From positions 29,493 through 93,492 of the forward strand of contig CAZSFZ010000003.1 of assembly GCA_964606385.1 (NCBI GenBank): a stretch of 64,000 nucleotides of DNA, given 5' to 3'. A model generated the notes under the pieces. That model did no database searches and was not told the origin of the DNA. It saw nothing but the letters and a program-made list of their open reading frames with translations. The first letter of the stretch is position 1. Every line of letters starts with the position of its first letter. The position numbers and the translations under genes were made by a program. Origin of the DNA: an uncultured bacterium. GTDB taxonomy: Bacteria; Omnitrophota; Omnitrophia; Omnitrophales; Aquincolibacteriaceae. Positions 13,028-52,603 of the stretch are shown here, one piece after another.

Positions 13028-13092
13028 CACTTCGCGGGGGACGTGGAACGGGAAACCAATTCGTTCAGCGTTCCCCGTTAACCGCTTCCCGG
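13028..13092. repeat. REP-like palindromic element, copy a, of the GGGGAACG / CCGTTAACCG family.
   Basis: ggaacgggaaac...cgttccccgttaaccg, in the intergenic region downstream of the Fe-ADH gene. Confidence 0.5.
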
Positions 13093-13125
13093 CACAGAAA
13101 TAAAAAGGCATCCATTTTTATTTCT

Positions 13126-14046
13126 GTGTTAGCATGCCTCATGCAAGAAAAACCTTCCCTCGGCTATTGGCTTCAGCACCTCATCGTCAAATATCTGGCC
13201 CTTCTCGCGACAGTGCTTCCCGTGGAAGTCTCACATCGCATTGCCTGCGGGTTTGGGACCCTATCCTACTGGATCCTGAAAAAACGCCGCAAGATCGCGG
13301 TTGAAAATATTACGCATGCTTTCGGAAATTCCATCTCTGACTCGAAGAAACAAGCGATCGCGCGTTCTGCTTTCCAAAGCGCCGCGCTTTCCATGATGGA
13401 ACTTTTCGTAGTCGAGAAGATCAAGAAAGAAGCCGCGGCGCGTTTCAAGCTGATCGGCAATGAGTTCCTGGAGGAAGCCTTTTCGAAAGATCAAGGTGTC
13501 GTGCTCGTGATCTCGCATCTGGGTTCCTGGGAATATCTTTCTTTTCTTCCCTACTTCACCAAACAGCCGTGGTCGGTCGTGGTCAAAGACATTAAAAATC
13601 CTTACCTCGATAAGGCCATTGATGCCATGCGCCGCGTCATGACGGTCAATCCGATCGCAAAGGACAGCTCAGTCCGGACGATCCTCCAGGAACTCAAAGC
13701 CGGACGCGGCGTCGCGATCCTGGTCGATCAGTGGGCCGGCAAGGACGGCCTCTGGGTTGATTTTTTCGGCACCAAGACTTCCACGACCTCGATCCCCGCC
13801 CGGCTTTCCGAAAAGACCGGTTGCGCGCTCGTTTCCGCCTGCTGCCTCCGGACGACCCCCGGGCATTATGAGATCCATATCGAAAAACCGATCGTTCATG
13901 ATCTGAATGAACCGGGCTGGGAGAAGACGGTCACTCAAGAGCTGAATGAGGTCCTCGAGCGCCAGATCAAGGCTCATCCTGAACAGTGGCTTTGGGGCCA
14001 CCGCCGATGGAAAGAAAAACCCCATAACCTCCGGGAAACTTCCTGA
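13126..14046 (+). CDS. Lipid A biosynthesis lauroyl/myristoyl acyltransferase-like protein (LpxL/HtrB family, LPLAT superfamily), copy 1.
   Basis: An N-terminal TM helix, then ISHLGSWEY (the H-x4-E/D acyltransferase motif) and a C-terminal ...HPEQWLWGHRRWK that is typical of the LpxL family. The start is ambiguous: GTG at 13126 or ATG at 13141. Confidence 0.7.
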   Translation: MLACLMQEKPSLGYWLQHLIVKYLALLATVLPVEVSHRIACGFGTLSYWILKKRRKIAVENITHAFGNSISDSKKQAIARSAFQSAALSMMELFVVEKIKKEAAARFKLIGNEFLEEAFSKDQGVVLVISHLGSWEYLSFLPYFTKQPWSVVVKDIKNPYLDKAIDAMRRVMTVNPIAKDSSVRTILQELKAGRGVAILVDQWAGKDGLWVDFFGTKTSTTSIPARLSEKTGCALVSACCLRTTPGHYEIHIEKPIVHDLNEPGWEKTVTQELNEVLERQIKAHPEQWLWGHRRWKEKPHNLRETS

Positions 14047-15212
14047 TGGATTTTGAACTCAAGATCGAAAAACTGGTGTTCGGGGGCGACGGCCTGGGCT
14101 TTGTCGACGGGAAGGCCTGTTTCGTGGAAGGAGCGCTCCCCGGCGAAAAAGTTCTGGCGCGCATCCTGAACGAAAAACCCAATTTCGTCAAAGCGAAACT
14201 CCTCCGTGTCCTTGAGCCCTCTTCCTCTCGGATCTATCCTCCGTGTCCTTATGTCGAACGCTGCGGCGGCTGCCAATACCAGCATCTTCCTTACAGCGAA
14301 GAACTGAAATGGAAAGAACTCCAGGTCCGGGAAAGTTTCGCGCAGGCGTTTAAGGGCGAAGAGATCTCCATCCTCCCGATCCGGGCGGGAACCAAGGAGT
14401 ACGGTTACCGGAACAGCATCACGATCCACCGCACAACGGAAAAGAACAACAAGCCCCAGCGGCTCGGATTCATCGGTCATGATAATTATTCGAAGGTCCT
14501 GATCGACTATTGCATGCTGGCCGATGAACGGCTGAGGGAGATCTTCACGGCCGAGCATCAGCTGAGCCGCAGTGAAGAAAAAAGAGGTTTTAAGCTTGAT
14601 GAAAAAGGCCGCATTTTCACAAGCGACGAGGAAAGGCTCTACCGCGTGCGCGTGGGCGGAAAATCCCTCTGGACCAGCTCTTTCGGATTCTTTCAGAATA
14701 ATATCGAGGTTACGGAACTCATCGCGAAGAAATTGACGGGGTCTCTTGAAGCCCTGAAACCCGCGCGGTTCCTGGACCTTTATGCCGGCGTCGGCACCTT
14801 TCCGCTGCTCGCGACTCAAAATGTCCCGGAGATCCATTGTTTCGAAGATAATCCTTACAGCACCGGATGCCTCCGCAGGAATGTGCAGGAATTCAATTTT
14901 CCGCTCGCGGGGATCTTTTCCGGGAAAGTCGAAAAAACCTTCCCTCGTTTCATCATGAAAAGCCCCAAACCCGGAACGCTCGTCTTCATGGACCCACCCC
15001 GGCAAGGGATCGCGTCATCCCTCGCGGATTTTCTTGGGAAAAACGATGTGGGTGAGCATATCTTTTATCTGGCCTGCGACCTGCAGATCCTTTTGCGGGA
15101 CCTTCGCCAGATCCTCGCCGCCGGCCGCTACCAGGTCCGGGAAGTCACTCCCTTCGACATGTTCCCCCGCACCAAACACATCGAAGTCCTCGCCTGGCTG
15201 ACTAAGATCTAA
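14046..15212 (+). CDS. rlmD: 23S rRNA (uracil-5)-methyltransferase of the RlmD/RumA family (TRAM domain, 4Fe-4S cluster, SAM-dependent MTase).
   Basis: An N-terminal TRAM-like segment. The Cys cluster is CPYVERCGGCQYQH. The C-terminal MTase motifs are LDLYAGVGTF and DPPRQG. The start overlaps the upstream stop (ATGA). Confidence 0.75.
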   Translation: MDFELKIEKLVFGGDGLGFVDGKACFVEGALPGEKVLARILNEKPNFVKAKLLRVLEPSSSRIYPPCPYVERCGGCQYQHLPYSEELKWKELQVRESFAQAFKGEEISILPIRAGTKEYGYRNSITIHRTTEKNNKPQRLGFIGHDNYSKVLIDYCMLADERLREIFTAEHQLSRSEEKRGFKLDEKGRIFTSDEERLYRVRVGGKSLWTSSFGFFQNNIEVTELIAKKLTGSLEALKPARFLDLYAGVGTFPLLATQNVPEIHCFEDNPYSTGCLRRNVQEFNFPLAGIFSGKVEKTFPRFIMKSPKPGTLVFMDPPRQGIASSLADFLGKNDVGEHIFYLACDLQILLRDLRQILAAGRYQVREVTPFDMFPRTKHIEVLAWLTKI

Positions 15213-16399
15213 ACCTTGTCTCCCGCTACGGCGCCGCTCGACCAGGCCCAGGCGAGGTTGTAGCCGCCGCGGCGGCCCTGAACGTCAAGGATCTCCCCCG
15301 CGAAATAAAGCCCCGGCTGGTATTCGGATTCCAGCGTCAAAGGCTCAACTTCATCCGCCGGCACACCACCGGCCGTGAATTCCGCTTCGTTCCAGCCGCG
15401 CGTTCCGTTCACCTTGAATTCTTTGTGTTTGAGAAGACGCGCGATCGAGGAGGCGTCGGCGTTCTGGACCTGGCTCCGGAAGGCCAGGAAAAATTTGTGC
15501 GTCAAAAGCCCTTCGAGAAGATTTTCCGGCGCCATGTCTTTTTTGAAGCGGCGCGAAAGTTCTTCCGTAAGTTCCGTTTCACTCATGAAGGGCACAAGAT
15601 CGGCAACGACCGCGACGTCTTTCCGGTGTTCACGGTTCATCGCGACCGAGATCTCGTCGCTCACGTCCAGGACGGCCGTCCCGGAAAGACCGTACTGCGT
15701 GAAAAGCAGCTCCCCGGAGGCCTCACGGACCTTTTTGCCCCTGATCAGGCTCGAGACATTCGCCCGGACCTTCTGCCCCTGAAGGAAATGACAGCACGGG
15801 TCTTTCACAAGAAGCGGGACCGTGCTCGGGACCGGTTCAAGGATCTTGTGCCTGAAGGCTGCCGCGAGCGCGTAACCGTTCCCATCCGCTCCAAGCGCCG
15901 GGTAGGACTTCCCTCCCGCGCAAAGGATCACTTTTTTGCAGGATTCTTTTTCCCCCGTCTTGGCGCAAACCTCAAAGCCCGCCTTGTGGGGCCAGACAGC
16001 TTTGACCTCACAGCCCAGATCGACGGCCACCTTGAGCCTCTCGAGTTCCATCTCGAGCACTTTGAGCACCGAGGCGGCCTGGTTCGTCACCGGAAAGATC
16101 CTTCCCGATTCATCCGCGTAGGTCGCGAGCCCGAGCTCCTTGAAAAACTCCAGCATGGCCTTTTTCCCGAACTGGTCCAGGATCGACCGGACCATCGCCT
16201 GGCTTTCCGGGTTATAAAAGGATTCGTCCAAGGTCTCGTTGAGCAGGTTGCAGCGCCCGGCGCCGGTCACGAGCAGCTTCTTGCCGAGTTTCGGCATTTT
16301 TTCGCAGATCAGCACGGACAGACCGCGGCGTTTCGCGGTGATCGCGGCCATCATCCCGGCCGCGCCGCCCCCGATCACGATCACATCATACGGAGTCAT
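15209..16399 (-). CDS. NAD(P)/FAD-dependent oxidoreductase of the HI0933/YhiN family (aminoacetone oxidase-like flavoprotein).
   Basis: MTPYDVIVIGGGAAGMMAA is the dinucleotide fold. The family-typical C-terminus is GLYFAGEILDVQGRRGGYNLAWAWSSG. Confidence 0.75.
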   Translation of the reverse strand: MTPYDVIVIGGGAAGMMAAITAKRRGLSVLICEKMPKLGKKLLVTGAGRCNLLNETLDESFYNPESQAMVRSILDQFGKKAMLEFFKELGLATYADESGRIFPVTNQAASVLKVLEMELERLKVAVDLGCEVKAVWPHKAGFEVCAKTGEKESCKKVILCAGGKSYPALGADGNGYALAAAFRHKILEPVPSTVPLLVKDPCCHFLQGQKVRANVSSLIRGKKVREASGELLFTQYGLSGTAVLDVSDEISVAMNREHRKDVAVVADLVPFMSETELTEELSRRFKKDMAPENLLEGLLTHKFFLAFRSQVQNADASSIARLLKHKEFKVNGTRGWNEAEFTAGGVPADEVEPLTLESEYQPGLYFAGEILDVQGRRGGYNLAWAWSSGAVAGDKV

Positions 16400-18197
16400 A
16401 GTCGCTTCGCTCCCGCGGGAAACGGTTAACGGAAAACGGGGAACGCTTTGAATTCTTCGTTCGCCGCTGATCGTTCATCGTTCCCCTGTTTTGGGGTTGT
16501 ATCAATTCCCGCTGAAATTGGCGTTCTTTATAGGTTTTTGCCGTCACGACTTTTTCGCCGGTCATCGGGTGCTGTCCCGTGTAATACATGCAGGTCGATA
16601 AGGTCATCGGCAAAGGCATGAAATCCTGCACCTGTTCCGGCCGCATCCGGTGCTCGGTTAAATACGCCGCGAGTCCGCGGGCGTCCGCGTCGGAGCACCC
16701 CGGATGCGCGCTGACAAAATAATTCACGAGGTATTGCTCTTTACCAACTTTTTGATTCATGGCTTTGAACCGCTCGACAAAGCGTTCAAAAACACGGATC
16801 GGCGGTTTATTCATGAGCTTGAGCACCGCGTCCGAAGCATGTTCCGGAGCGACCTTCAGCTGCCCGCTCACATGGTCCCTGCAAAGCGCTTCCAAGTAGG
16901 CATCCGAACCTTTATCGACAAGCAGGTCATACCGGAGACCGCTTTGAATAAAAAGATGTTTCACTTTCGGGACCGCCAGCACCTCTTTCCAAAGCTCCAG
17001 AGATCTTTCGTAGCCAAGCTTCAGCTGAGGGCATTTGGAGGGCATCATGCACTGTCTGTTCCTGCAGGCCCCAGCGGAGTCCCACTCGTCGCAGGTCGCA
17101 GCGTAGAGGTTCGCGGTCGGGCCCCCGATATCGGTGATCGTGCCTTTAAAATCATTCCGGGAAGCCAAGAGCTTCACTTCGCCGAGGATCGATCCCTTGC
17201 TGCGGCTTTGGATCATCCGGCCTTGATGCGCGAAAAGGGAGCAGAAATTGCACTCCCCGGCACAGCCGCGGTGGGAGGTGATCGAAAAACGCACGGTCTC
17301 AAAACCCGGCACGCCTCCGGCGCGTTCGTAAACGGGGTGCCAATTCCGGGCGAACGGCAAACTGTAGAAATGATCTAATATGGAGGCCGTTAGCGGCAAG
17401 GGCGGCGGTTCCTGGATCACGAACCGGGTTCCATGCTGTTGGAGAAGCGGTTTGCCGCGCACCGGATCCCCTTCAAGATAAGCCAAACGAAAGGCCTCAT
17501 TAAATTGATGCTTGTCGGTGCTTGTTTCTTCGTAAGAAGGCAGGCGAACCGCGTGTTCAAAGCCTAGATCACTGTTCCTCAAGATCGCCGTTCCGCGAAT
17601 GCCCTTGAGCTTTTTGATATCTTCCCCGCTCGCAAGCCGGCGCGCGATCTCAAGGATCTGGACTTCCCCCATGCCGTACACCAGCATGTCCGCTTTCGCG
17701 TCCACCAGGACCGAACGGCGTACGCTTTCATCCCAATAATCAAAATGCGCGAGGCGGCGAAGGCTGGCTTCCACCCCGCCCAGCACGACGGGCACGCCCG
17801 GAAAAAACCCTTTGAGCTTGCTGGTGTAAACGATCGAGGCGCGGTTCGGCCTCAGACCCGACCGGCCGCCCGGCGCGTAATCGTCCGTCCGGCGCGGTTT
17901 CTTGCTCGCGGTGTAATTGCTGACCATGGAATCAAGGTTGCCGGCCGTGACCCCGAAAAAAAGTTTGGGGCGCCCGAGCGCCATGAAATCCTTGGGAGTC
18001 CTCCAATCGGGCTGCGCGATGACCCCGACCTTATAGCCCGCGTCCTCGAGGACCCGTCCGATCAGGGCAGTGCCATAGGAAGGATGGTCCACATAAGCGT
18101 CCCCTGTTACCAGGATGATGTCACACGCCTCCCACCCGCGGGCGGCAAGATCTTCTTTAGAAATAGGCAGGAATTTCTTCCGATCTATGCTGGACAT
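16386..18197 (-). CDS. ygiQ: YgiQ family radical SAM protein (UPF0313).
   Basis: The N-terminus WEACDIILVTGDAYVDHPSYGTALIGRVLEDAGYKVGVIAQPDW matches YgiQ. The radical-SAM cluster is HRGCAGECNFCS. The C-terminal tail runs through a REP-like element. Confidence 0.8.
   Translation of the reverse strand: MSSIDRKKFLPISKEDLAARGWEACDIILVTGDAYVDHPSYGTALIGRVLEDAGYKVGVIAQPDWRTPKDFMALGRPKLFFGVTAGNLDSMVSNYTASKKPRRTDDYAPGGRSGLRPNRASIVYTSKLKGFFPGVPVVLGGVEASLRRLAHFDYWDESVRRSVLVDAKADMLVYGMGEVQILEIARRLASGEDIKKLKGIRGTAILRNSDLGFEHAVRLPSYEETSTDKHQFNEAFRLAYLEGDPVRGKPLLQQHGTRFVIQEPPPLPLTASILDHFYSLPFARNWHPVYERAGGVPGFETVRFSITSHRGCAGECNFCSLFAHQGRMIQSRSKGSILGEVKLLASRNDFKGTITDIGGPTANLYAATCDEWDSAGACRNRQCMMPSKCPQLKLGYERSLELWKEVLAVPKVKHLFIQSGLRYDLLVDKGSDAYLEALCRDHVSGQLKVAPEHASDAVLKLMNKPPIRVFERFVERFKAMNQKVGKEQYLVNYFVSAHPGCSDADARGLAAYLTEHRMRPEQVQDFMPLPMTLSTCMYYTGQHPMTGEKVVTAKTYKERQFQRELIQPQNRGTMNDQRRTKNSKRSPFSVNRFPRERSDYDSV
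16411..16496. repeat. REP-like palindromic element, copy b, lying inside the 3' end of ygiQ.
   Basis: gggaaacggttaacggaaaacggggaacg ... cgttcatcgttcccc. It is translated as part of the YgiQ C-terminal tail (..RSPFSVNRFPRER..). Confidence 0.45.
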
Positions 18198-18259
18198 AAA
18201 AAGATTATAACCTTCTTGAAGGTAATGCTAAAGGTCAAAGGTTCGGGATACGGCACCGA

Positions 18260-18288
18260 TTCAAATGACGGCTGACTCATGATATAAT
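18260..18288 (+). promoter_or_regulatory. Putative sigma70 promoter for the Fe/Mn SOD gene (extended -10).
   Basis: TTCAAA (18260-18265), a 17-bp spacer, then TGaTATAAT (-10 at 18283-18288). It lies about 85 nt upstream of the SOD ATG. Confidence 0.4.
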
Positions 18289-18372
18289 GTTCGGGCTTGA
18301 AATCATGTGTGAGGAACCTGCGGCCTAAAGACGGGCCTTCGGTCCTTGTACGTCAGAAGAAAGGAACCTTTT

Positions 18373-18954
18373 ATGGCATTTACACTTCCAGAACTTCCTT
18401 ACGCGATGGACGCCCTGGCGCCCCAGATCAGCAAAGAAACGCTCGAATACCATTACGGTAAGCATCACCAGACCTACGTCACGAACCTGAACAAATTGAC
18501 CGACGGAAAACCGGAAGCCGGAAAATCGCTCGAAGAATTGATCAAGACGGCCAAGGGTCCTCTTTTCAATAACGCGGCCCAGGTCTGGAACCACACGTTC
18601 TACTGGAACTGCCTGAAACCCCAGGGAGGCGGACAGCCCACGGGCGCGTTGCTGGAAGCGATCAACGAATCCTTTGGGAGTTTTGACGAGTTTAAAACGC
18701 TTTTCACGAATATGGCGATCGGGCTCTTCGGCTCGGGCTGGGTGTGGCTCGTGAAGGACGAAGATGGCACGATCGGGATCGAATCCATGCCGAATGCCGG
18801 CAATCCCCTTGTGAACGGCCAAACACCGCTTCTCACCTGCGATGTGTGGGAACACGCCTATTACATCGATTACCGGAATGCCCGCGCGAAATACGTGGAA
18901 ACGTTCTGGAATCTTGTGAATTGGGATTTTGTTTCAAAAAATTTAGGGAACTAA
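18373..18954 (+). CDS. sodB: Fe/Mn superoxide dismutase.
   Basis: MAFTLPELPYAMDALAPQISKETLEYHYGKHH...DVWEHAYYIDYRN is the canonical Fe/Mn-SOD sequence. An AAGGAA RBS is present. The track's longer ORF starts upstream at 18346. Confidence 0.9.
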   Translation: MAFTLPELPYAMDALAPQISKETLEYHYGKHHQTYVTNLNKLTDGKPEAGKSLEELIKTAKGPLFNNAAQVWNHTFYWNCLKPQGGGQPTGALLEAINESFGSFDEFKTLFTNMAIGLFGSGWVWLVKDEDGTIGIESMPNAGNPLVNGQTPLLTCDVWEHAYYIDYRNARAKYVETFWNLVNWDFVSKNLGN

Positions 18955-18965
18955 ATTTTTTGCGG

Positions 18966-19032
18966 GAAACGTAACGCGGGGAACGGGAAACGAAAACACG
19001 GTCTTTCGTTCAACGTTCCCCGTTTTCCTTTC
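18966..19032. terminator. REP-like palindromic element, copy c, acting as a probable intrinsic terminator for sodB. It sits between convergent genes.
   Basis: GGGGAACGGGAAACGAAA-acacggtc-TTTCGTTcaACGTTCCCC followed by GTTTTCCTTTCTT. It shares GGGGAACG/CGTTCCCC arms with the other copies. Confidence 0.5.
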
Positions 19033-19527
19033 TTAATTCAGCATCGCTTCCATCCGCGAGATCGCCTTCGCAGCCAGCGTGTACTCGGGATTCTTTTCGA
19101 GGGCATGACGGTAAGCCTCAAGCGCCTGGGCCCAATCACCCTGATGCTCCCACACACGGCCCAGGTTATACCAGGCATAGAATCTGCCGTCGTAGCGTTC
19201 CGCCACGGTCGCGCGCTGGAGCCAGGAGATCGCTTCCTCCCAGCGGCCTGTCTCGATCATGTAAGCTCCGATATCATTGTAGGGATTTCCATATTCCGGG
19301 TCCAAACGCACCGCTTTTTCGCATTCCCGGATCGCGTCTCCGTAACGCCCTTTGACGCTGTAGGCCCATCCGAGGCACGTGTGCGCTTCGGCCGTGGGCA
19401 CCATCTCAAGCGACTTGAGATAGAGCTCAATGGCCTGATCGACCTTCCCCGCCATCTGTTGGGCGTAGGCTTCCTGAAGCAACCGGCCCGCTTCGTCTTC
19501 TTTATTGGGAATATGAAAATCTTCCAT
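19033..19527 (-). CDS. TPR repeat protein.
   Basis: Several TPR units (AYAQQMAGKVDQAIELYLKSLEMVP, GWAYSVKGRYGDAIRECEKAVRLDP, WYNLGRVWEHQGDWAQALEAYRHALEKNP). The start at MEDFH (19527) is preferred over the overlapping longer ORF. Confidence 0.6.
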   Translation of the reverse strand: MEDFHIPNKEDEAGRLLQEAYAQQMAGKVDQAIELYLKSLEMVPTAEAHTCLGWAYSVKGRYGDAIRECEKAVRLDPEYGNPYNDIGAYMIETGRWEEAISWLQRATVAERYDGRFYAWYNLGRVWEHQGDWAQALEAYRHALEKNPEYTLAAKAISRMEAMLN

Positions 19528-19543
19528 GGAATGATCGCGAGGT

Positions 19544-20149
19544 CTAAAACTGCATAAAGGGGTTCGTCTGCCGTTCGTGTTCGATCGTGGAAGAATCCGC
19601 ATCGCCGTAAGCGTGACCCGGGAACACTTGAAGCGAACCCTCGAGCGACGCGAGACGCTTCAGGCTTTGCAGGATCTTTTTTTCATCGCCGCCCGGAAGA
19701 TCGCATCGCCCGCAAGCACCCACGAAAAGCGTATCACCCGTTACAAGTTTATCGCCCACCAGGATACACTGGGCGCCTTCGGTGTGGCCCGGCGTGTGAA
19801 GGAATGCGAGCTCCATATCCCCGATCTTCAGCTTGAAGCCCTCACGGGTCTCGATGATATGGTCTTTAACGTCTTTCAGGAATTTCGCTTCGTTCTCGTG
19901 GACATAGATTTTGACGCCGGTCTTTTGGACCAAGTCCTCCACGCCGTTCGAATGGTCGAAATGCGTGTGCGTCAGGATCCCCGCCACGACTTTCATGCCG
20001 TCTTTTTCGGCCGTCTTGAGGATCGCGTCCACGTCCCAAGCAGGATCCACCACGGCGCATTCTTTCTTCTTCTTATCGCCGATCAGATAGACGAAGTTCC
20101 CCATGTAGCCCACGGGGATCTGTTTGAAATAGAGGTCTTTAGGATCCAC
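19544..20149 (-). CDS. MBL-fold metallo-hydrolase (glyoxalase II-like).
   Basis: The THTHFDH metal-binding motif, then later HTPGHT and a downstream His/Asp. A GTG start overlaps the folA stop. Confidence 0.75.
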   Translation of the reverse strand: MDPKDLYFKQIPVGYMGNFVYLIGDKKKKECAVVDPAWDVDAILKTAEKDGMKVVAGILTHTHFDHSNGVEDLVQKTGVKIYVHENEAKFLKDVKDHIIETREGFKLKIGDMELAFLHTPGHTEGAQCILVGDKLVTGDTLFVGACGRCDLPGGDEKKILQSLKRLASLEGSLQVFPGHAYGDADSSTIEHERQTNPFMQF

Positions 20150-20636
20150 AGCAACAGCAGCTTTTCTTTTTAGTATTCTCGTAGTAGATCACTTCCAGGA
20201 AAGGATCGTCCTGGAGCTTCAGGCGCTTTTTCTCCGCGAAAAAGGGCGGGATCTCCGGATAAAGCACATCGCCGTCGTAGTCGGCATGGATCCGGGTGAG
20301 ATAAATACCGTCCACGCGCTCGATCGTGGTGCGGTAAAGCTGCGCGCCGCCGATGATGAAGGCGTGCTCCGTCCGGACGTTCTTGAGCGCTTCGTCCACG
20401 GTCGCAAAAAAGGTTTGGCCGGGATAGGGCTTCGCGCCGGTGTGGTCCAGAATGAAATTGGTCCGGTTCGGAAGCGCCTTGCAGCCGAGACTTTCAAAAG
20501 TCTTGAGGCCCATGATCACGGTCTGTCCCGTGGTCGTCACCTTGAAATGCTGAAGGTCTTTCGGGAAATGCCACGGAAGCTGGTTCCCTTTTCCGATCAC
20601 GCGGTTATTCGCGACGGCCACAATGTGATAAAGCAT
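20139..20636 (-). CDS. folA: Dihydrofolate reductase.
   Basis: MLYHIVAVANNRVIGKGNQLPWHFPKDLQHFKVTTTGQTVIMGLKTFESLG is the canonical DHFR sequence. It lies directly downstream of thyA. Confidence 0.85.
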   Translation of the reverse strand: MLYHIVAVANNRVIGKGNQLPWHFPKDLQHFKVTTTGQTVIMGLKTFESLGCKALPNRTNFILDHTGAKPYPGQTFFATVDEALKNVRTEHAFIIGGAQLYRTTIERVDGIYLTRIHADYDGDVLYPEIPPFFAEKKRLKLQDDPFLEVIYYENTKKKSCCCCGS

Positions 20637-20666
20637 GCATCCTCCTGAAAGTTAGATAAAGACCCG

Positions 20667-21461
20667 TTAAACGGCCACCGGCGCTTTGATCGCCGGATGG
20701 GGATCGTAATTTTCGAGCGTGAAATCCTCATATTTAAAATCAAAAATGTTCCGGACCTTGGGATTGAGCGCCATGGTCGGTAGGGCCCGCGGTTCCCGCG
20801 AAAGCTGAAGCTTCACCTGCTCCATATGGTTCAGATAAATATGCACATCCCCAAAGGTGTGGATGAACTCCCCCGGCTCAAGACCTGTGACCTGCGCCAT
20901 CATGAGCGTCAAAAGAGAATAAGAAGCGATATTAAACGGAACACCCAGAAAGACATCCGCGCTCCGCTGATAAAGCTGGCAGGAAAGCTTTCCCCGGAGC
21001 ACATAGAACTGAAAGAACGCGTGGCACGGCGGCAACGCCATCTTGTCGATCTCTCCGGGATTCCAGGCGCTTACGATGATCCTCCGACTGTCCGGTGTTT
21101 TCCTGATCATCTCGACCGCTTGCGTGATCTGGTCTACAACTTTTCCATCCGGACCTTTCCAGGAACGCCATTGGGCCCCATAGACCGGTCCGAGATCCCC
21201 GTTCGCGTCGGCCCACTCGTCCCAGATCGTCACTCCGTTATTCTTCAGGAACTTGATGTTCGTATCGCCGGCAAGCAGCCAAAGAAGCTCGTAGATCACG
21301 GCTTTTGTGTAGATCTTTTTCGTGGTCAGAAGCGGAAAACCTTTGGCGAGATCAAAACGCATCTGATAGCCGAACGTGCTGATCGTCCCCGTGCCGGTAC
21401 GGTCTTTTTTCTCAGCGCCGTGATCCAAAATATGCTGCAGCAGGTCCAAATATGGCTTCAT
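20667..21461 (-). CDS. thyA: Thymidylate synthase.
   Basis: DRTGTGT, the catalytic Cys context [12 protein letters not shown], and ...DVHIYLNH. The gene is 264 aa. Confidence 0.95.
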
Positions 21462-22543
21462 GGGATTTCGATAAGATCTTCCGGCATGCTGGCGGGAAGC
21501 TCCGTCGCCGGGTCTTTGGGAGTTTCCGGAGCGGGAGCAGGATCCTTAAAGAAATGCGTGTCATCGACGTTCAGATCGCCAAAAAAAGACGTCTTGAGCC
21601 CGAGCACGGCGGGATCTCCCGGCCGCTTCACGTAGACGATATCTTCTTTTTCATTTCTGGCGCCGGCGTTCAAGATCGTTTTTTTGCCATCCGCTGTCAC
21701 GATCAGCTGCCAGGCGGGTTTTTCAAGATCATACCCTTCTCCCTGAGGATCCAGGACTTTTTCAGCCTTGATGCTGTTCATCGCGGCGATGAATTTCAAT
21801 ACCTTGTCGGGATCGGGCGGCGAGGTCGTATCCCCGCGCAGAAATTTCCAGGAAGACTTGAGCGGATCACTCGGATCTTTAACGCGTTCCAACCCCACCA
21901 TGCGATTCTTCTCATCGCCCTTCAGCTCATAAAGGGCGATCTTTGTCACTTTCTCGGGATCCAGGTCGAAAAGACCGAGGTCTGCCCAAAACAAGGCCGT
22001 GGGGTTATTGTCCTTGAGGTCCGCGTAGATCCCCCAAAGCTCTTCGATATTCATATCCGTCAGGTAAACCTCATCACGATCGGCTTTTCGGAGGAAAAAC
22101 CCCGAATTCCCGGCCTGCCGGGTTCCGAGCCGGAGGTCCTGAAGCAGCATGTCCCCCGCTCCGAAGAACTTGATCGAAAAAGCCTCAGTGTCCTGAATGC
22201 CGAAGTCCGGCCACAATTTCTTTTCCGAGCCGCGCAGCTCTCCCCTGAGCGACCGAAATGTCTGGATGAATTTTTCCATCTTTTCGGGATCCGCTTTGGC
22301 GTGCCATAGACTTTTCACTTTCCAGACGCCGTTCTCTTTGGCGAGCTCCAGGGTATACGGAGGATTCCCGCGCTCGATCAGGATCCTTTCGAGTTTCCCG
22401 GGATCGAACTCCGTCAGGACCGCGCGGTCGTCCGGACGCGATCCGGCCCGATCGCTCGCGGCCCGCACCCAGGATTTCAGAACGATCCCGAGCACGAGCG
22501 CTCCGAAAATGACGCTCAAAATAATGATCTGTTTGGGTTTCAT
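21458..22543 (-). CDS. DUF4340 domain protein (periplasmic partner of GldG-like ABC systems).
   Basis: An N-terminal TM anchor. It is positioned downstream of, and translationally coupled to, the ABC-2/GldG gene. The architecture is typical of DUF4340. Confidence 0.55.
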
Positions 22544-22571
22544 AGGATTTAAGCCGGCCCGCGCCGGTCCT

Positions 22572-25067: not shown

Positions 25068-25816
25068 GCGCTCACCGCCCTCTGAGGCGCCAAAAGCCGG
25101 ATAAAGATCTCTTCGAGCGAAAGTTCCTGCGCCGCCTTCCCCGCGCCCAGGACCTTCTCGGCCAGTTCTCGCTTGGTCCCCTGCGCCACAAGCTTACCTT
25201 CATTGATGATCACGATGCGATCGGCAAGTGCTTCGACTTCCTGCAGGATATGGGTCGAAAAAACGATGGTCTTTTCCTTCGCAAGGCTTTTGACAAGAGA
25301 GCGGATCTCGATGATCTGAATGGGGTCCAGTCCCGAAGTCGGTTCATCCAGGATCAGGACTTTGGGATCATGGATCAAAGCCTGCGCGAGCCCGACCCGC
25401 TGGCCGAACCCTTTGGAAAGTTCGCACAAAAGGTGTTTCCACACATTCCGGAGATGACAGGCCTTTTGAACCCACTCGAGCCGTTCCGCGAGCCTGGCGC
25501 CTGTCAGCGCGCGAGCCTTGCCCACGAACGTCAGGTATTCATCCACCCTCATATCGCCGTAAAGCGGAACGGTTTCGGGCAAATACCCGATCCGCTTACG
25601 GACCTCAATGGGGTTTTCCAGAATATCGAAACCATCGACTTTCGCGGTCCCGGAGGAAGGAAAAAGGTAGGTCGTCAGGATCCGCATGGCCGTGGTCTTC
25701 CCGGCCCCGTTCGGGCCGAGCAACCCGAGCACTTCTCCCGGATTCGCCTGGAAGGACACATGGTCCAACGCGATGGCCGGACCGTAATGCATCGTAAGCT
25801 CTTGAACGTCGATCAC
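25064..25816 (-). CDS. ABC transporter ATP-binding protein.
   Basis: Walker A GPNGAGKTT, the signature LSKGFGQRV, and Walker B LILDEPTSGLD. Confidence 0.9.
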   Translation of the reverse strand: MIDVQELTMHYGPAIALDHVSFQANPGEVLGLLGPNGAGKTTAMRILTTYLFPSSGTAKVDGFDILENPIEVRKRIGYLPETVPLYGDMRVDEYLTFVGKARALTGARLAERLEWVQKACHLRNVWKHLLCELSKGFGQRVGLAQALIHDPKVLILDEPTSGLDPIQIIEIRSLVKSLAKEKTIVFSTHILQEVEALADRIVIINEGKLVAQGTKRELAEKVLGAGKAAQELSLEEIFIRLLAPQRAVSA

Positions 25817-25852
25817 TTGATAAATCTCAAATTTTAAATTTTAAAATTCAAA

Positions 25853-26539
25853 TCAGCGGCGCCGGCCGAAGATCTGGAGCAGGAACAGGAACATATTGAT
25901 AAAATCCAGGTAAAGCATCAGCGCACCGACGACCGCCAGTTGTTCCGGTGCGTTCCCCATGCTCCGGTGGATCATCTTGAGCCGCTGTGTGTCGTACGCC
26001 GTGAGGCCGATGAAGACCGCGACGCCGATGTAAGAAACGATCCAGTTGAACATCGGTGACTGGAAGAACCAGTTCGCGATGCTCGCGATGATCACCCCGA
26101 TCAGGCCCATAAAACAAAAACTCCCGACCGAGGTCAGATCCTGCCGCGTCACCCAGCCGTAAACGCTCACGCCCGCGAAGGTCATGGCGGTAATGAAAAA
26201 AGTCGAGGCGATCGACGCTTGGGCGTAACGGATAAAGATCCAGGACATCGTCAGGCCGTTCAGCGCGGAAAAAATGAGGAAACCGATCACCGCGGTCGAA
26301 GCGGAGATCTTGCTCATGCTTCTCGTCAGCCAGATCACGATCCCGATCTCGGCGATCGCCAGTAAAAGGCCGCCGCCGGAAAGCGTGAAGCGGAGCACCT
26401 CCACGTTGCTGGCCGTCCAGAAAGCAAGGACTCCCGTCAGGGCGAGGCCCATGGCCATCCATTGATAGACCCGCTGCATGAAATTTGAAAAAACGGTTTC
26501 CTGTGAATAGGAAAAAGGCTGTTGATTGGAATCGTTCAT
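25853..26539 (-). CDS. Bax inhibitor-1/YccA family membrane protein.
   Basis: Seven TM segments and the C-terminal family signature ...LYLDFINMFLFLLQIFG. Confidence 0.8.
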   Translation of the reverse strand: MNDSNQQPFSYSQETVFSNFMQRVYQWMAMGLALTGVLAFWTASNVEVLRFTLSGGGLLLAIAEIGIVIWLTRSMSKISASTAVIGFLIFSALNGLTMSWIFIRYAQASIASTFFITAMTFAGVSVYGWVTRQDLTSVGSFCFMGLIGVIIASIANWFFQSPMFNWIVSYIGVAVFIGLTAYDTQRLKMIHRSMGNAPEQLAVVGALMLYLDFINMFLFLLQIFGRRR

Positions 26540-26607
26540 GCGAACCTCCTGATTTTTAAATGACCGGAAAATATTTTAACTAAAATTCACGCCCCAGGCA
26601 ACGCGGC

Positions 26608-27033: not shown

Positions 27034-27047
27034 AAACTCCTTCGGAG

Positions 27048-27111
27048 CGGGGAACGGCCCATGATGAACGGGGAACGCTTTCGTTAGCCGTTACCCGTTT
27101 CCCGTTCCCCG
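27048..27111. repeat. REP-like palindromic element, copy d.
   Basis: ggggaacggcccatgatgaacggggaacg cttt cgttagccgttacccgtttcccgttcccc, lying between the NUDIX stop and the ArsC-like start. Confidence 0.5.
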
Positions 27112-39443: not shown

Positions 39444-39533
39444 TGGCGGAGAGGGGGAGATTCGAACTCCCGATACGCTTGCGCGTATAACAGTTTTCGA
39501 GACTGCCGCATTCGGCCACTCTGCCACCTCTCC
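39444..39533 (-). tRNA. tRNA-Ser (anticodon CGA), class II with a long variable arm. CCA is encoded.
   Basis: The sequence on the minus strand is GGAGAGGTGGCAGAGTGGCCGAATGCGGCAGTCTCGAAAACTGTTATACGCGCAAGCGTATCGGGAGTTCGAATCTCCCCCTCTCCGCCA. The acceptor is GGAGAGG/CCTCTCC, the anticodon loop is CTCGAAA, the variable-arm hairpin is ATACGC-GCAA-GCGTAT, and the T-arm is GGGAG-TTCGAAT-CTCCC. Confidence 0.9.
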
Positions 39534-39726
39534 GTGGTATGGAGGAAAATGCTCGGACTTTGCAGGATCCGCGTTCCGGATACAAAAGCGTTTAGAGTCT
39601 ATGTATTTCTTTAAGGTTGGTCAAGGCGAGAGAATAGGGCTCTCCGCGGCTTCCGCCATTATCGTAAGATGCCCCAAAACGATGAATCTAATTTACATTT
39701 CGGAGGCCCTTCCTTAAAATCATGCC

Positions 39727-44418: not shown

Positions 44419-46191
44419 TCACAAGGTTTCCATGCAAACACGGTTCTTCCCCGACGCCTTGGCCCGGTAGAGGGCCGCATCGGCGCGATGAACCATCGGA
44501 TCGGGAACATTTTCCCCGGGACGGCGCACGGCAACCCCCAGACTGATCGTCACCCGGATCGGCTTCCCCTCCCATTCGAACCGGGTCTCCTCGACTTTCT
44601 TTCGGATCCTTTCGGCCGCGATCTCGGCCGCTTCGCGCAGGCCGGCCTTTCGGAGCATGATAATGAATTCCTCGCCCCCGTAACGGGCCGCGAAATCGAT
44701 CTCGCGGAAGGCCCGGCGTTTCCGGATAAAAGCGAGAAGGATCGCCGCGACTTTTTTAAGCACCATGTCCCCCGCCGGATGTCCGTAGGTGTCGTTGATC
44801 TGCTTGAAGTTGTCGATATCCATCAGGATGACGGATAAAGGCTGGTTTCGCACGCTCGCTTCCCGCACGATATGATTCATGATCAAACGGAAATGCCGGA
44901 TCACATAGAGCTCCGTCAGACCGTCCCGCGTCGCGAGATGGAAAAGCTGGGATTTTTCTCGAATCGCCGTCGCCTGGACATAGATAGCCGAAAAAACAAA
45001 CAGGCTGAGCATGAGCAGGACGGGGTAGACCACATAGAACCAGACGTGCCATTTCATCAAAGCAAAAAAGCAGAAAACGATCCATCCTGCGACGAGCAAA
45101 AGCCCGGCGACAAGAGACCAGATGCCGCTCAAAGTCACGAACAGAAAAATCGCCAGAAAACCGCTCCCCAGAAGACACAGGAAATTCCCCGTGGCCGAAA
45201 CGGGGCGGATCCAGTTGCCCGTTAATGCCGCGTTCAGCACCTGAGCGTAAATACCGATCTGGGGGTATGAAATATTTAGCGGGGTCACCTTAAGCTCCGC
45301 GGCTCCTGGCGCCGTTGGTCCGACAAGACAGATCTTCCCCGCGAGCGCGGCCGGATCAATGAGGGGACGCATTCCTTTCTGGATCGCGTAAAAACTGTGG
45401 ATCAGGTCCGCGTAGTTGTAGCGCACGAATCCACGGTCCCAGACCCGGCTCCACGGGATGAGCATTTTCCCCTGCGCATCTTCATATTTTTTCCATTCTT
45501 GCGGCGCCGGAACGGCTAGCTGCATATGGTCAAAAGCCACGCGAAGCGGAAGAAAATGATGGCCTTCACCCCCCTCGTCAGCAAAAGGTTCGAACCGGCG
45601 CAAGATCCCGTCCGGATCCGGGCCAAGGAAACTGTGTCCTGTTACTTTTACCTCTTTTTCGAATTCCGGCATGGCGTGGACCCAGACCTTCTGTCCCTCG
45701 CTTTTTTCCAGTACCACCGGCATGCCATGCACCCAGAATTTCTTTTCTTTTTTGGGCTTCAGTTCCACTGGAATATAAATGGGAGTTTTGATCTTCGCGA
45801 GCGATTGAGCCAGGTCCTGATCATTCTTGGGATCCGTCGGTTCCGAAAGATCGAGATCGAAAATGATCGCGGCCGCCTTCCATTCGTTTAAAAGGCGCGC
45901 CATGATGGCGTGATAGCTTCTCGGCCAAGGCCATGCCCCGATCTCATCCAAGGCGGTTTCCGAGATTTCGATCAGCGCGATGTCCGGGTGGGCTTGCCCC
46001 CAAGCGATATGTTTGAGGAAACTATCACGGGCAAGATCTTCCATCCGGTCTAACTTGCGGGTTCCCAAAAGAAGCGCGAAAACAATGATGATGAGAAAGT
46101 AGGTCCCGAACCGGAGCCAGTCTTGGTAGGAGCGCGAGCGGGTGCGCGTAAAAAGTTTTTCGGTCGCTTCGATCGGTTCGTGGGCCGTCAT
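44419..46191 (-). CDS. CHASE2 sensor - TM - GGDEF diguanylate cyclase (canonical GGEEF with an RxxD I-site).
   Basis: The CHASE2 signature is IGAWPWPRSYHA. After the TM segments come REIDFAARYGGEEFIIML and the D-I-D metal site (LMDIDNFKQIND). It is a paralog of 7256-8992. Confidence 0.85.
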   Translation of the reverse strand: MTAHEPIEATEKLFTRTRSRSYQDWLRFGTYFLIIIVFALLLGTRKLDRMEDLARDSFLKHIAWGQAHPDIALIEISETALDEIGAWPWPRSYHAIMARLLNEWKAAAIIFDLDLSEPTDPKNDQDLAQSLAKIKTPIYIPVELKPKKEKKFWVHGMPVVLEKSEGQKVWVHAMPEFEKEVKVTGHSFLGPDPDGILRRFEPFADEGGEGHHFLPLRVAFDHMQLAVPAPQEWKKYEDAQGKMLIPWSRVWDRGFVRYNYADLIHSFYAIQKGMRPLIDPAALAGKICLVGPTAPGAAELKVTPLNISYPQIGIYAQVLNAALTGNWIRPVSATGNFLCLLGSGFLAIFLFVTLSGIWSLVAGLLLVAGWIVFCFFALMKWHVWFYVVYPVLLMLSLFVFSAIYVQATAIREKSQLFHLATRDGLTELYVIRHFRLIMNHIVREASVRNQPLSVILMDIDNFKQINDTYGHPAGDMVLKKVAAILLAFIRKRRAFREIDFAARYGGEEFIIMLRKAGLREAAEIAAERIRKKVEETRFEWEGKPIRVTISLGVAVRRPGENVPDPMVHRADAALYRAKASGKNRVCMETL

Positions 46192-49477: not shown

Positions 49478-49520
49478 AAAGCCTATTTTCTCCTTAAACT
49501 TTTTAAAAGCTTATTAAAGA

Positions 49521-49568
49521 TTACTATATGTGGGTGATTTCAACGAACCATCCACTACATATAGTATC
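49521..49568. promoter_or_regulatory. Two NrdR-box-like palindromes upstream of nrdJ.
   Basis: ttACTATATgTGggtg (49521-49536) and ccACTACATATAGTATcg (49551-49568). The second matches the NrdR consensus aCaCtATATaTaGtGt at about 13 of 16 positions. The centre-to-centre spacing is about 30 bp and the boxes are 45-90 bp upstream of the nrdJ start. Confidence 0.35.
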
Positions 49569-49658
49569 GAACGTGCCTGTTTTTCTCAGATCAATTTTTG
49601 TCACAGGGAACGCCCGAAACTTCAGGAACTTGCGATTTGTTGTCGAACCTCAGGATAC

Positions 49659-49694
49659 CAAAAAAAATTTCACCGCCAACCCACTGCGGCGGTG
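49659..49694 (-). terminator. Rho-independent terminator downstream of mnmE.
   Basis: On the minus strand the stem CACCGCC-gcagtgggtt-GGCGGTG is followed by AAA and then TTTTTTTT. Confidence 0.5.
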
Positions 49695-49831
49695 AATCCT
49701 ATTTTTAAGAAAACATTTTTTATTAATTTTTATGCTGAAAAAAAATTCAAATCGTCCAGCGAGTGGAATTTTAACAAAGAAACATCCGATGTCAACGCAA
49801 TTTAAAAATTATTTTCAAAATTTTTAAAAAA

Positions 49832-51223: not shown

Positions 51224-52535
51224 GAGTGAGAACCTTTCGCGCTTCACCGACCAAATAGAACGATCCCGCCACCACGACGCTATCTCCCGTACTTGAAACC
51301 TTCCGGACCAGCTCAAAGGCTTCACGGATATTCTGGGCCGGGAGCATGCATTTGAAAAGTCCTTTAGCTTCATCGAGAAGCATGGAAACGGTTTTCGCCC
51401 GGTTCCCGTCAATGCCGGTCAGGATTATTTTAGAAAAAAATCCGCTCAGGATCCGGAGCATCTCGCGGCTGTTCTTGTCATTCATCGCGCCAAACACCAA
51501 CCAAAGATTCCTCTTTTTTTCGTCATTGCGAGCGCAGCGAAGCAATCTATAGCGTGCGAGATTGCCGCGTCGCCTCTCCTCCGTCGCGGCTCCTCGCAAT
51601 GACATAATAAGCCCTTTCGTTGAGATCGGATTGTGGGCGCCATCCAGAATGAACCTCCGTCCATGTTGCTGGAAGGCTTCCATCCTTCCTTTCCAGTGAC
51701 GGCATTGCAATCCCTGTTTGGATCGCTCGAGCGTGAGTGGATAATGAAAATATTTTTGAAGAATCTCAGCTGCTTTCCAAGCGACGCCCGCGTTCTGCTT
51801 TTGAAAACCTCCGGCCAGTCCCAGCCTGACGCCGGAAAAAGGTCCGGCTTTCCACAAAGTTCCGCGGTTCTTTTTGACCGACCCGTGGATCACCCTCAAA
51901 GCCTCCGGGGCCTGATTTCCGATCACCACATGGTTTCGGAATTTGATGATCGCGGCCTTTTCCGCGGCGATCCTCGCGATCGTGCTCCCCAGGAACGCTT
52001 CATGATCGAGATGGATGGGCGTGAGGATCACCAGCGGTGCTTTCAGGACATTGGTCGCGTCAAGACGCCCGCCAAGCCCGATCTCGAAGATGCCGATCCG
52101 GACGCCTGTCCTCGCGAAGATCCAGATCGCCAAAAAGGTCAGGATCTCGAAATAGGTCAGAACTCCCAATCGGCCCGGGAGAGGGTTTTTGTTTAAAAGA
52201 TTCCGGATCACCGAAAGGCCTTCCGCCCAAAGCTTGGGGGATGCCATGTCCCCTTGGATCCGGATGCGTTCACGCGGGGTTTCCACATGCGGTGAATGAT
52301 AATAGCCTGTCTGGATGCCGTTGGTTTTGAGAATGGACTCCAGAAAAAACCCTGTAGAGCCCTTACCGGTCGTACCGGCGATCAGGATCGGGAAAAATTT
52401 CTTTTCGGGGTGGCCGCTGATCCGGAGCAGATGCTCCATGCGTTTCAGATTAAAGAAGGCGTTGTCCGGGAACCGGCTCAGCTTTTCGAGGTTCAGGAAG
52501 GAATCAAGATAGCTGAGGGATTGGGAGTAATTCAT
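51216..52535 (-). CDS. folC: Bifunctional folylpolyglutamate synthase / dihydrofolate synthase, carrying an in-frame ~27-aa insertion encoded by a palindromic element.
   Basis: The Mur-ligase family P-loop IAGTTGKGST, plus DATNV and LDGAHNP. Between AHNP and LVFGAM lies an extra segment ...GAATEERRRGNLARYRLLRCARNDEKK..., encoded by the 51522-51603 TIR element. Confidence 0.85.
   Translation of the reverse strand: MNYSQSLSYLDSFLNLEKLSRFPDNAFFNLKRMEHLLRISGHPEKKFFPILIAGTTGKGSTGFFLESILKTNGIQTGYYHSPHVETPRERIRIQGDMASPKLWAEGLSVIRNLLNKNPLPGRLGVLTYFEILTFLAIWIFARTGVRIGIFEIGLGGRLDATNVLKAPLVILTPIHLDHEAFLGSTIARIAAEKAAIIKFRNHVVIGNQAPEALRVIHGSVKKNRGTLWKAGPFSGVRLGLAGGFQKQNAGVAWKAAEILQKYFHYPLTLERSKQGLQCRHWKGRMEAFQQHGRRFILDGAHNPISTKGLIMSLRGAATEERRRGNLARYRLLRCARNDEKKRNLWLVFGAMNDKNSREMLRILSGFFSKIILTGIDGNRAKTVSMLLDEAKGLFKCMLPAQNIREAFELVRKVSSTGDSVVVAGSFYLVGEARKVLTHG
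51522..51603. repeat. 82-bp palindromic MITE/RPE-like element inserted in-frame in folC.
   Basis: The 11-bp terminal inverted repeats are GTCATTGCGAG ... CTCGCAATGAC. Internal nested inverted repeats are gcaatct/agattgc and gccgcg/cgcggc. Flanks are AT-rich (tttttttc | ataataag). The core gtcattgcgagcgcagcgaagcaatc resembles a palindromic repeat seen in many uncultivated-bacterial genomes. Confidence 0.55.
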
Positions 52536-52540
52536 TTTCT

Positions 52541-52603
52541 CGGGAAACGGGGAACGGCAAACGAGAAACGATCCGTTAACCGTTCGTCGTTACCCGTTCC
52601 CCG
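52541..52603. repeat. REP-like palindromic element, copy e, between purH and folC.
   Basis: gggaaacggggaacggcaaacgagaaacgatccgttaaccgttcgtcgttacccgttcccc. The arms are GGGGAACGG/CCGTTCCCC and the core is CCGTTAACCG. Confidence 0.5.

Follow-up and report, generated by a model that had tools for sequence, protein, structure and literature searches.

Heptad palindromes directly downstream of stop codons in an Omnitrophota genome segment and its relatives

The DNA analysed here is a 64,000-nt stretch of an uncultured Omnitrophota bacterium (contig CAZSFZ010000003.1, positions 29,493 to 93,492; hereafter the window), in which an initial annotation had noticed five related imperfect palindromes of 60-90 bp. 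In agreement with this origin, the SodB encoded here falls into a 90%-identity cluster of proteins from Candidatus Omnitrophota metagenome-assembled genomes. All five were located again, at 13028..13092 (copy a), 16411..16496 (copy b), 18966..19032 (copy c), 27048..27111 (copy d) and 52541..52603 (copy e), and an inverted-repeat finder returned copies c, d and e. The arms of all five are tandem arrays of 3-5 degenerate 7-nt units, with NNNAACG units on the 5' side, a loop, and then CGTTNNN units. They belong to a heptad-palindrome class which, in this clade of Omnitrophota, fills the short spacers directly behind stop codons. In the reading that we tentatively prefer, with a confidence a little short of even, the five copies are one flavour of a dispersed, fast-turnover family, whose members would be transcribed as stem-loops just behind stop codons and would have a role like that of repetitive extragenic palindromic (REP) sequences, with no demonstrated membership among the repeats that are moved by REP-associated tyrosine transposases (RAYTs).

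The copies had been described as built from (G/A)AACG-type units, and AACG cores are present, but the 7-nt periodicity of the arrays was overlooked, as were the purine-first polarity, the stop-codon proximity and the membership in a clade-wide and cross-phylum class. These are key traits of the elements. The results of most interest go further than the initial annotation, namely a 7-nt rule that holds across the clade, a polarity that is fixed, the closeness to stops and the turnover of flavours at fixed junctions; the elements are a new variant, and their kind is already known but unexplained.

Periodic structure and statistical support in the window

The five window copies share one flavour, with units of the form RRRAACG and CGTTYYY and ends of the form CGGGRAACG...CGTTYCCCG, and these inverted termini are conserved across all five. 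The order is always a purine-rich array, the loop and a pyrimidine-rich array, and either strand gives the same reading. Three of the copies had been said to carry a CCGTTAACCG core. Three matches do occur (0.18 expected), but they lie in the right arm of copy a, in the left arm of copy b and beside the loop in copy e; the string is therefore one heptad variant (GGTTAAC/GTTAACC) and not a shared core.

The arrangement was searched for with a periodic detector, which asks for three AACG spaced by 7 nt and then, within 30 nt, for three CGTT in the same spacing, and accepts a site when 21 or more of the 24 positions match. On the 64 kb it returned the five elements only, and nothing in 30 dinucleotide-preserving shuffles per threshold. 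A stricter exact-chain detector recovered four of the five, with no match in 200 shuffles. When the window was compared with itself, lag 7 yielded three arrays, and lags 5, 6, 8, 9 and 10 yielded none at the same threshold. The string GGGGAACG occurs 15 times against 5.2 expected, a count reached in none of 100 shuffles; nine of these matches lie inside the five elements and three in an array within a pabB-like gene, described below. The looser 7-mer GGRAACG shows no window-wide enrichment (44 vs 36), which indicates that the signal is one of clustering and not of composition.

As the initial annotation had proposed, a profile hidden Markov model (HMM) was built from the five copies; run on the window, it had additional matches in two places alone, the pabB array (E about 1e-3) and a candidate decayed copy at 57940..57981 (E about 0.05). 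No further strong copy was found by this model in the 64-kb window. The element density is 5-6 per window, and 60-90 bp is the size of a bacterial interspersed mosaic element (BIME) or of a REPIN, the paired form of REPs, not of a single REP. When Rfam covariance models were run over the whole window, the gathering score was reached by two tRNAs only.

Conserved junctions and exchanged units in related Omnitrophota

Relatives were represented by 15 metagenome loci from a YgiQ scan (L121-L135, with YgiQ 73-82% identical) and by a cluster representative, L144 (87%). Gene order is kept over about 20 kb between the window and these loci. At the junctions that are filled in the window (NUDIX-ArsC, TPR-SodB, YgiQ-HI0933 and LpxL-FeADH) the relatives mostly have a hairpin of the same architecture, sites b and c being filled in most of them, and at junctions that are empty in the window (ThyA-DHFR, MBL-TPR and HI0933-TrmA) a hairpin is found in some relatives only.

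The units at these sites belong to six or more families across genomes (GGGGAAC/GGAAACG, GCGCAAC, GTACGGN, CAGACNN, GGGACTC, GGATGGN and CTATAGN). For example, the closest relative, L144, has GGATG units at site a, GCGCAACG units at site b, GGATGGC units at site c and nothing at site d, and it carries an element at ThyA-DHFR, where the window has none. Very short spacers without an element were found in L133, and in L144 at site d. One flavour may occupy several junctions of a single genome, such as the three GCGCAAC-type copies of L122, and may also recur in several genomes. Decayed or collapsed versions are present in L133, L134 and L125, and at the "empty" ThyA-DHFR site of L133 one CAGACC unit remains.

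Among lags 4-12, self-similarity was highest at lag 7 in 33 of the 37 orthologous 3' spacers. Over the 37 spacers the folding z averages -2.9 and is below -2 in 73%. In 246 kb of the relatives, lag 7 gave 29 arrays and each of lags 5, 6 and 8-12 gave 0-4. When heptad hairpins of every flavour are taken together, 29 of 32 have the purine-rich arm on the 5' side. Polarity was counted in 251 kb, which comprised L121-L135 plus four pattern-selected loci. Arrays with AACG followed by CGTT were found 19 times and the reverse order never, and the window gives five and zero at the same threshold.

The relatives thus keep site, period, polarity and hairpin potential, and it is these that are conserved, not the sequence. 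The window and its syntenic relatives form a natural experiment, in which junctions and architecture are fixed and the spelling of the units is interchangeable; this argues against a single sequence-specific binder and for a structural or mechanistic constraint, and it opens the questions "why seven?" and "what copies them?" to concrete tests. Further copies also exist outside the window, in related genomes.

Position relative to genes

The earlier statement that most copies sit at gene 3' ends can be made more exact. All five occupy short spacers, with 0-12 nt between a stop codon and the foot of the stem, and the junctions are co-directional or convergent, none of them divergent. Among spacers of at least 40 nt, none of the four divergent ones is occupied vs 5-6 of about 20 co-directional or convergent ones, a difference that alone is not significant. 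According to a Pfam scan of about 54 open reading frames (ORFs) in the window, the neighbouring genes are ordinary housekeeping genes.

Folding z values of the spacer RNAs are -5.8 for copy a (neighbouring hairpin included), -2.1 for b, -2.05 for d and -5.0 for e, and copy c gives -3.1 on the + strand and -3.2 on the - strand. A hairpin-plus-T-run scan of positions 12500-27500 yielded 34 terminator-like sites, with none of copies a-d among them. Copies b, d and e have no T-run; instead, the Shine-Dalgarno sequence or the start codon of the next gene comes within some 5-20 nt behind them. Since they run almost directly into the next ribosome-binding site or start codon, they would not be classical terminators but stem-loops of intercistronic or 3'-terminal position. 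Copy c had been taken for a bidirectional terminator of sodB. Its flanking genes are convergent and, on the + strand only, a T-rich tail follows it, but the canonical hairpin-plus-T-run scan lends this reading no support. The more general suggestion of a role in termination or mRNA stability survives in part, because an RNA stem-loop role of the REP type is plausible by analogy, but no canonical terminator match was obtained for a-d.

Proposed role and its weak points

According to the reading that we prefer, the elements would form the 3' end of the upstream cistron's transcript, where they would fold into long RNA stem-loops with a tolerance for changes of register. If REP hairpins are a guide, such stem-loops could protect the upstream mRNA from 3' exonucleases and attenuate read-through. 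As the elements lie within the ribosome footprint at the stop codon, they could also influence termination and the coupling to the next cistron. One report, which cites earlier work, states that removal of REP hairpins from 3' untranslated regions shortens mRNA half-life and that REPs located at most 15 nt from the stop codon stall ribosomes (PMC12306157).

The families would spread between loci through a copying process (transposition or gene conversion), and within a locus the arrays would change by replication slippage in 7-nt steps combined with hairpin-templated correction. Together, slippage, correction and spread would explain why turnover is fast and why each flavour evolves in concert. 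Flavour-wise evolution, the presence/absence differences and the small number of recurring flavours argue for copying between loci, and the tandem structure argues for slippage within loci. Both processes are read from these patterns.

Several observations count against this proposal. A hairpin role alone leaves the period of 7, the purine-first order and the well-kept AACG core unaccounted for. In an arm-swap test, native arms folded at -28.0 kcal/mol vs -25.8 kcal/mol for chimeras between elements (permutation p 0.05). Because native arms barely beat the chimeras, the pairing appears to come from the shared unit consensus and not from element-specific compensatory change; with a gain this marginal, no covariation support for the hairpin is claimed. 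The folding z of copies b and d is just about -2, and that the elements are transcribed and folded at all is something we infer. No mobilising enzyme was found among the window ORFs or the L144 genes, and no target-site duplication at the five flanks, direct repeats being absent around every copy. As regards miniature inverted-repeat transposable elements, which combine terminal inverted repeats and target-site duplications with a related autonomous insertion sequence, the inverted termini of the five are conserved and the window contains no insertion sequence. Furthermore, no clean boundary between an empty and a filled site was found, as the orthologous sites aligned too poorly for insertion limits. 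Synonymous sites are probably saturated at these divergences, and in-situ drift together with concerted evolution is still conceivable. Our confidence stays just below even because of the unexplained period, polarity and AACG core and because of the arm-swap result.

Alternative explanations

The alternative that survives best, although we consider it unlikely, is that the arrays are a neutral by-product of 7-nt slippage and template switching at pre-existing terminator hairpins, growing and decaying in place, tolerated only past stop codons, where they would do no harm, and without function. Rehm et al. (PMC4692102) describe heptamers as an over-represented class of long simple sequence repeats (SSRs) in many bacteria and give slippage as a proposed cause. 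The decayed and collapsed versions, the lone CAGACC unit of L133 and the occurrence of single-arm arrays (in pabB and in viral contigs) are in line with such an origin. However, only a few flavours recur across loci and genomes, particular junctions stay occupied through flavour changes, and the near-universal purine-first polarity (29/32) is not predicted by slippage.

It is more doubtful that the elements are of the true REP/REPIN type, that is, non-autonomous single-stranded DNA hairpins moved by a RAYT (Y1/HUH) that is encoded elsewhere, with one RAYT per flavour. They do resemble such repeats in being dispersed, extragenic and palindromic, in their genome-specific consensus and concerted evolution, in the presence/absence differences between close relatives and in the conserved outer termini CGGGRAACG, and the co-evolution of REP and RAYT pairs is known (PMC8266576, PMC2817692). 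A GTAG/CGTC tag at one end of the palindrome typifies most REP families (PMC3733652). However, all five copies start with (C)GGG(G/A)AACG and finish with CGTT(C/T)CCC(G), and neither GTAG nor CGTC stands at any foot. The tandem-heptad arms are also unlike described REPs, no Y1_Tnp or other transposase was found by Pfam in the window ORFs or in the 22 called genes of L144, and the occupancy of the same junctions across genera favours site constraint over free transposition. The initial annotation was right to see a genuine dispersed family of intergenic palindromes at gene 3' ends, but the missing tag and the tandem heptads do not fit the REP/BIME label, and no RAYT was found among the window ORFs.

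A dedicated mechanism with a 7-nt register appears doubtful to the same degree. Here an enzyme or a ribonucleoprotein would write, copy or convert arrays just past stop codons, and the flavours would be competing lineages. Either this machinery or several that arose by convergence would then be at work in many bacterial phyla, given that Omnitrophota, Gemmatimonadota, Rhodanobacteraceae, Saprospiraceae and Chloroflexia all contain a GGGGAAC unit of identical sequence. If true, it would define a new class of genome-resident repeat, apart from REP/RAYT, miniature inverted-repeat transposable elements and CRISPR.

Less probable again are arrays of double-stranded DNA binding sites, recognised by a nucleoid protein or by a protein that reads head-to-head 7-bp units, like ribbon-helix-helix proteins. 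An invariant core of 4-5 nt (AACG[G]) at exact 7-nt spacing with free bases between, a fixed head-to-head polarity and arms that are not specifically complementary in the arm-swap test would all suit a binding protein, and unidentified global regulators or IHF/HU have been proposed for the analogous paired sites of Geobacter metallireducens (PMC2700814). However, with unrelated units at the same junctions in sister genomes several co-evolving proteins would be needed, the elements follow stop codons and are missing from divergent (promoter) spacers, and a 7-bp period places successive sites on different faces of B-DNA.

Two further readings are very improbable. Four-stranded structures (G-quadruplexes or i-motifs), as proposed for GGGAATC and GGGGAYT repeats, are compatible with perfect (GGGGAAC) arrays of at least four units in other phyla, which meet the G-quadruplex rule, and with in vitro G-quadruplex formation by related heptads (PMC4692102), but the reading was rejected for the window by motif count, since the G3+N1-7 x4 motif is present in none of the five copies on either strand and only in the pabB array, and most Omnitrophota flavours (GCGCAAC, GTACGGN, CAGACNN) cannot form one. 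Ordinary, unrelated intrinsic terminators that merely look alike would agree with the 3'-end location and with the T-rich tail of copy c between its convergent genes, but units, termini and periodicity are common to all copies far beyond chance, which contradicts the possibility, raised at the outset, of local hairpins without shared arms, and the canonical-terminator reading was rejected from the scan result for a-d and from the start codons, in place of T-runs, after b, d and e.

Resemblances to other systems were considered as well. Integron attC sites have core sites of the form RYYYAAC...GTTRRRY; this analogy was rejected in view of the housekeeping-gene setting, the occurrence in both orientations, the 3-5 units per arm and the lack of an integrase nearby. 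Tn3-family inverted repeats and the AAACGG subterminal motifs of maize Ac also resemble the elements, a similarity that was dismissed as coincidence because the other flavours share neither.

Arrays within the ygiQ and pabB reading frames

Copy b had been said to be translated as the C-terminal tail of ygiQ, and this was found to be so. The ORF runs through the element to a stop at 16386-16388, with about the last 36 codons in frame. The 603-aa product is a called gene in public data, and its frame ends 12 nt inside the next gene. Conservation of YgiQ stops at ...ELIQP(K/Q), and the tail past that point tracks the local heptads (GERGTGN-type or QRTTxN-type peptides); of 13 distinct YgiQ orthologues, four have the stop codon within the element or directly behind it. 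At the ORF level the translation of the tail is therefore real, but it seems incidental. As a separate observation on this gene (16386-18197), the YgiQ of the clade aligns with the C-terminal DUF3362 over positions 1-52 of 151 only, so it is naturally truncated relative to the family model.

The array noted within pabB is likewise present. It reads (CGTTCCC)x3 at 55948-55969 and lies in an ORF for a chorismate-binding (PabB-like) protein; on the coding strand (-) it is a single-arm array, (GGGGAAC)x3. Its 21 nt are in frame and encode RGTGNGER in the linker between two Pfam domains, and it is identical in a 98%-identical homologue. We infer that arrays which landed in frame produced both the ygiQ tail and the PabB linker as by-products. 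Rickettsia palindromic elements can also sit in frame within genes and be translated, like these two, but they are 100-150 bp long, have no heptad arrays and typically lie within ORFs rather than past stops. In practical terms, the arrays lengthen called ORFs (the ygiQ tail), add peptide repeats (PabB) and likely break short-read assemblies of uncultured phyla.

Occurrence in other phyla and in viral contigs

A genome collection was scanned with CGGGGAACG N20-50 CGTTCCCCG, a pattern that does not demand tandem structure. It gave at least 119 loci, mostly chance matches in G+C-rich genomes, and the source genome of the window was not among the matches listed. About 20-30 of those listed are clear (GGGGAAC)n-loop-(GTTCCCC)n palindromes. 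They come from Gemmatimonadota and Longimicrobium, Cellvibrionaceae, Chloroflexia, three Omnitrophota metagenome-assembled genomes (MAGs) and Rhodanobacteraceae isolates (Rhodanobacter soli, Fulvimonas soli, Dyella and Frateuria), again among the matches listed. In a Saprospiraceae MAG of 42% G+C, GGGGAAC is mixed with GGTTAAC units, as in the window. By rough ORF calls, 11 of 22 listed matches have the stop of a long ORF at a distance of 3-12 nt, which suggests that the stop-codon rule also applies in other phyla.

A scan of viral contigs for (GGGGAAC)3 returned six loci, mostly single arrays, with one reversed pair at a 105-nt spacing; it is uninformative on mobility. One of these contigs (L143, 3060-3180) has adjacent heptad arrays, (GGTTAGC/AGTGAGC)n and then (GTTCCCC)5, and in another (L138, 5294-5370) (GTTCCCC)11 directly follows an ORF end. 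Heptad arrays thus also occur on contigs classed as viral.

Comparison with known repeat systems

A literature search by sequence string found no paper with GGGGAACGGGGAAC in a bacterial context. In their proposed role the elements are REP-like and in their build they are inverted heptamer SSRs, with no demonstrated REP/RAYT membership; among described repeats, the inverted heptamers of Xanthomonas and the paired tandem-repeat sites of Geobacter metallireducens come closest to them. Heptamer repeats of Xanthomonas, cyanobacteria, Geobacter and Beggiatoaceae are abundant, and each report left their function unexplained.

Rehm et al. 2015 (PMC4692102) described GGGAATC in Xanthomonas and GGGGA(C/T)T in Nostoc (STRR-type) as G-rich heptamer SSRs. 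Xanthomonas has 70-75 convergent inverted pairs per genome, with a G-rich array on each strand. These pairs are over-represented in the non-coding spacers of aligned ORFs, seldom lie between divergent ones and are mostly at most 50 bp from a stop; their position is conserved among species, their length and sequence are variable, and they have no association with insertion sequences (PMC4692102). The window elements share with them the 7-nt tandem units, the purine-first convergent pairing, the non-coding location near stops, the rarity at divergent ORFs and the conserved positions. However, the window units are degenerate, with the AACG core alone fixed, and no G-quadruplex is possible in the five copies; essentially all copies of the window type are inverted pairs, whereas the repeats of Rehm et al. 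are mostly single arrays. Moreover, unrelated unit families here swap at one junction among sister genomes, and the phylum is Omnitrophota.

In G. metallireducens, Aklujkar et al. 2009 (PMC2700814) reported sites of class 1 (GTTGCTYN x4), class 2 (TCTCCGTS x3) and class 3 (MTYCTGA x5), as well as GGGACCG x4. They are similar to the present elements in having tandem units of 7-8 nt on opposite strands, tens of copies and an intergenic location within operons (for example proB-proA), and a different repeat stands at the same spot in the sister species G. sulfurreducens. They differ in that they were read as sites for a regulator or IHF/HU, in their variable distance between halves and in the association of some with insertion sequences, and no analysis of stop-codon proximity or polarity was reported for them.

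With REP, BIME and REPIN sequences the elements have in common that they are high-density extragenic palindromes at 3' ends and between cistrons with a species-specific consensus; the RNA hairpin roles in mRNA stability and the effect on translation of REPs near stop codons, as given in PMC12306157, are further points of likeness. They differ from REPs, which have no heptad structure, in this respect and in the absence of the GTAG/CGTC tag and of a RAYT in the window ORFs. The TAACTGA repeats of Beggiatoaceae, Cyanobacteria and Bacteroidetes, for which no transfer mechanism was evident (MacGregor 2015, PMC4679880), likewise consist of an identical tandem heptamer in intergenic regions of distantly related phyla. 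In contrast, they are direct repeats (one inverted case in 170) and lie mostly just upstream of start codons, and binding of a post-transcriptional regulator was suggested for them.

Anatomy of the individual copies

Copy a has the units GGGGACG TGGAACG GGAAACC / aatt / CGTTCAG CGTTCCC CGTTAAC CGCTTCC and lies between the Fe-ADH gene (+, stop 13019-13021) and a lipid A acyltransferase gene (+). Its predicted stem, 13034-13078, begins 12 nt past the Fe-ADH stop. A perfect 14-bp A+T-rich hairpin at 13093-13128 (CACAGAAATAAAAA / TTTTTATTTCTGTG) abuts this copy upstream of the acyltransferase gene; its CACAGAA portion is shared with L144, and it could be an actual terminator or a regulatory hairpin. 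Copy b (GGAAACG GTTAACG GAAAACG GGGAACG / loop / CGTTCGC CGCTGAT CGTTCAT CGTTCCC) is flanked by the end of the conserved part of ygiQ (-) and by the start of an HI0933-like flavoprotein gene (-, ATG at 16399). Copy c is placed between the convergent sodB (+, stop 18952-18954) and TPR genes (-, stop 19033-19035), with its stem base 9 nt from the sodB stop and 0 nt from the TPR stop.

Copy d (GGGAACG GCCCATG ATGAACG GGGAACG / cttt / CGTTAGC CGTTACC CGTTTCC CGTTCCC) is found between a NUDIX gene (-, stop 27116-27118) and an ArsC/Spx-like gene (-, ATG at 27033). Its stem begins 4 nt past the NUDIX stop, and the Shine-Dalgarno sequence AAGGAG lies immediately beyond the element edge. The most regular one is copy e, which scores 24/24 with the detector and has the units GGAAACG GGGAACG GCAAACG AGAAACG / atc / CGTTAAC CGTTCGT CGTTACC CGTTCCC. 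It separates purH (-, stop 52609-52611) from a Mur-ligase-like gene (-), and its stem also begins 4 nt past the stop. The candidate decayed sixth copy (GGAAACT GGCCGCG ACTCACG / gat / CGTTCGC CGTTCTC CGGTTTT) is weak, with a detector score of 19/24; it occupies the spacer right past the stop of a tRNA-binding-domain gene (-).

An A+T-rich heptad array of CAAATTT/TAAATTT units is present at 25818-25854, in the spacer between the Bax1-I and ABC-ATPase genes. The motif also occurs at the orthologous junction of L127 (1977-2009) and elsewhere in L122 (16513) and L133 (527), and the array may be a further, A+T-rich flavour of the heptad class.

Other observations in the window

The spacer between the cupin and Fe-ADH genes (11831-11893) holds a G+C-rich hairpin (z -3.4) that is not heptad-periodic; the corresponding L144 spacer has 18 nt and no hairpin, which adds one more gene 3' end to those with presence/absence differences. 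The longest ORF next to it, of 616 aa (9995-11845, -), has no Pfam match and was rejected as spurious according to the called genes of L144. The real genes at that site are both on the + strand, a saccharopine-dehydrogenase-like gene (10007-11464) and the cupin gene (11483-11830), and there is no divergent junction there.

A TPR-protein ORF (37984-39585) overlaps a tRNA-Ser on the same strand (39444-39533), from which it follows that the TPR start codon is over-called. Upstream of a class II ribonucleotide reductase gene there is a 354-nt A+T-rich spacer (49478-49831) with several inverted repeats and no Rfam match at the gathering score. One of these repeats (49522-49566), TACTATATGTGG...CCACTACATATAGTA, resembles NrdR boxes. 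Two kinds of large genes are unrelated to the palindromes, namely a 2016-aa autotransporter with at least 10 PATR repeats (823-6873) and two paralogous CHASE2-GGDEF diguanylate cyclases (7256-9328 and 44419-46191).

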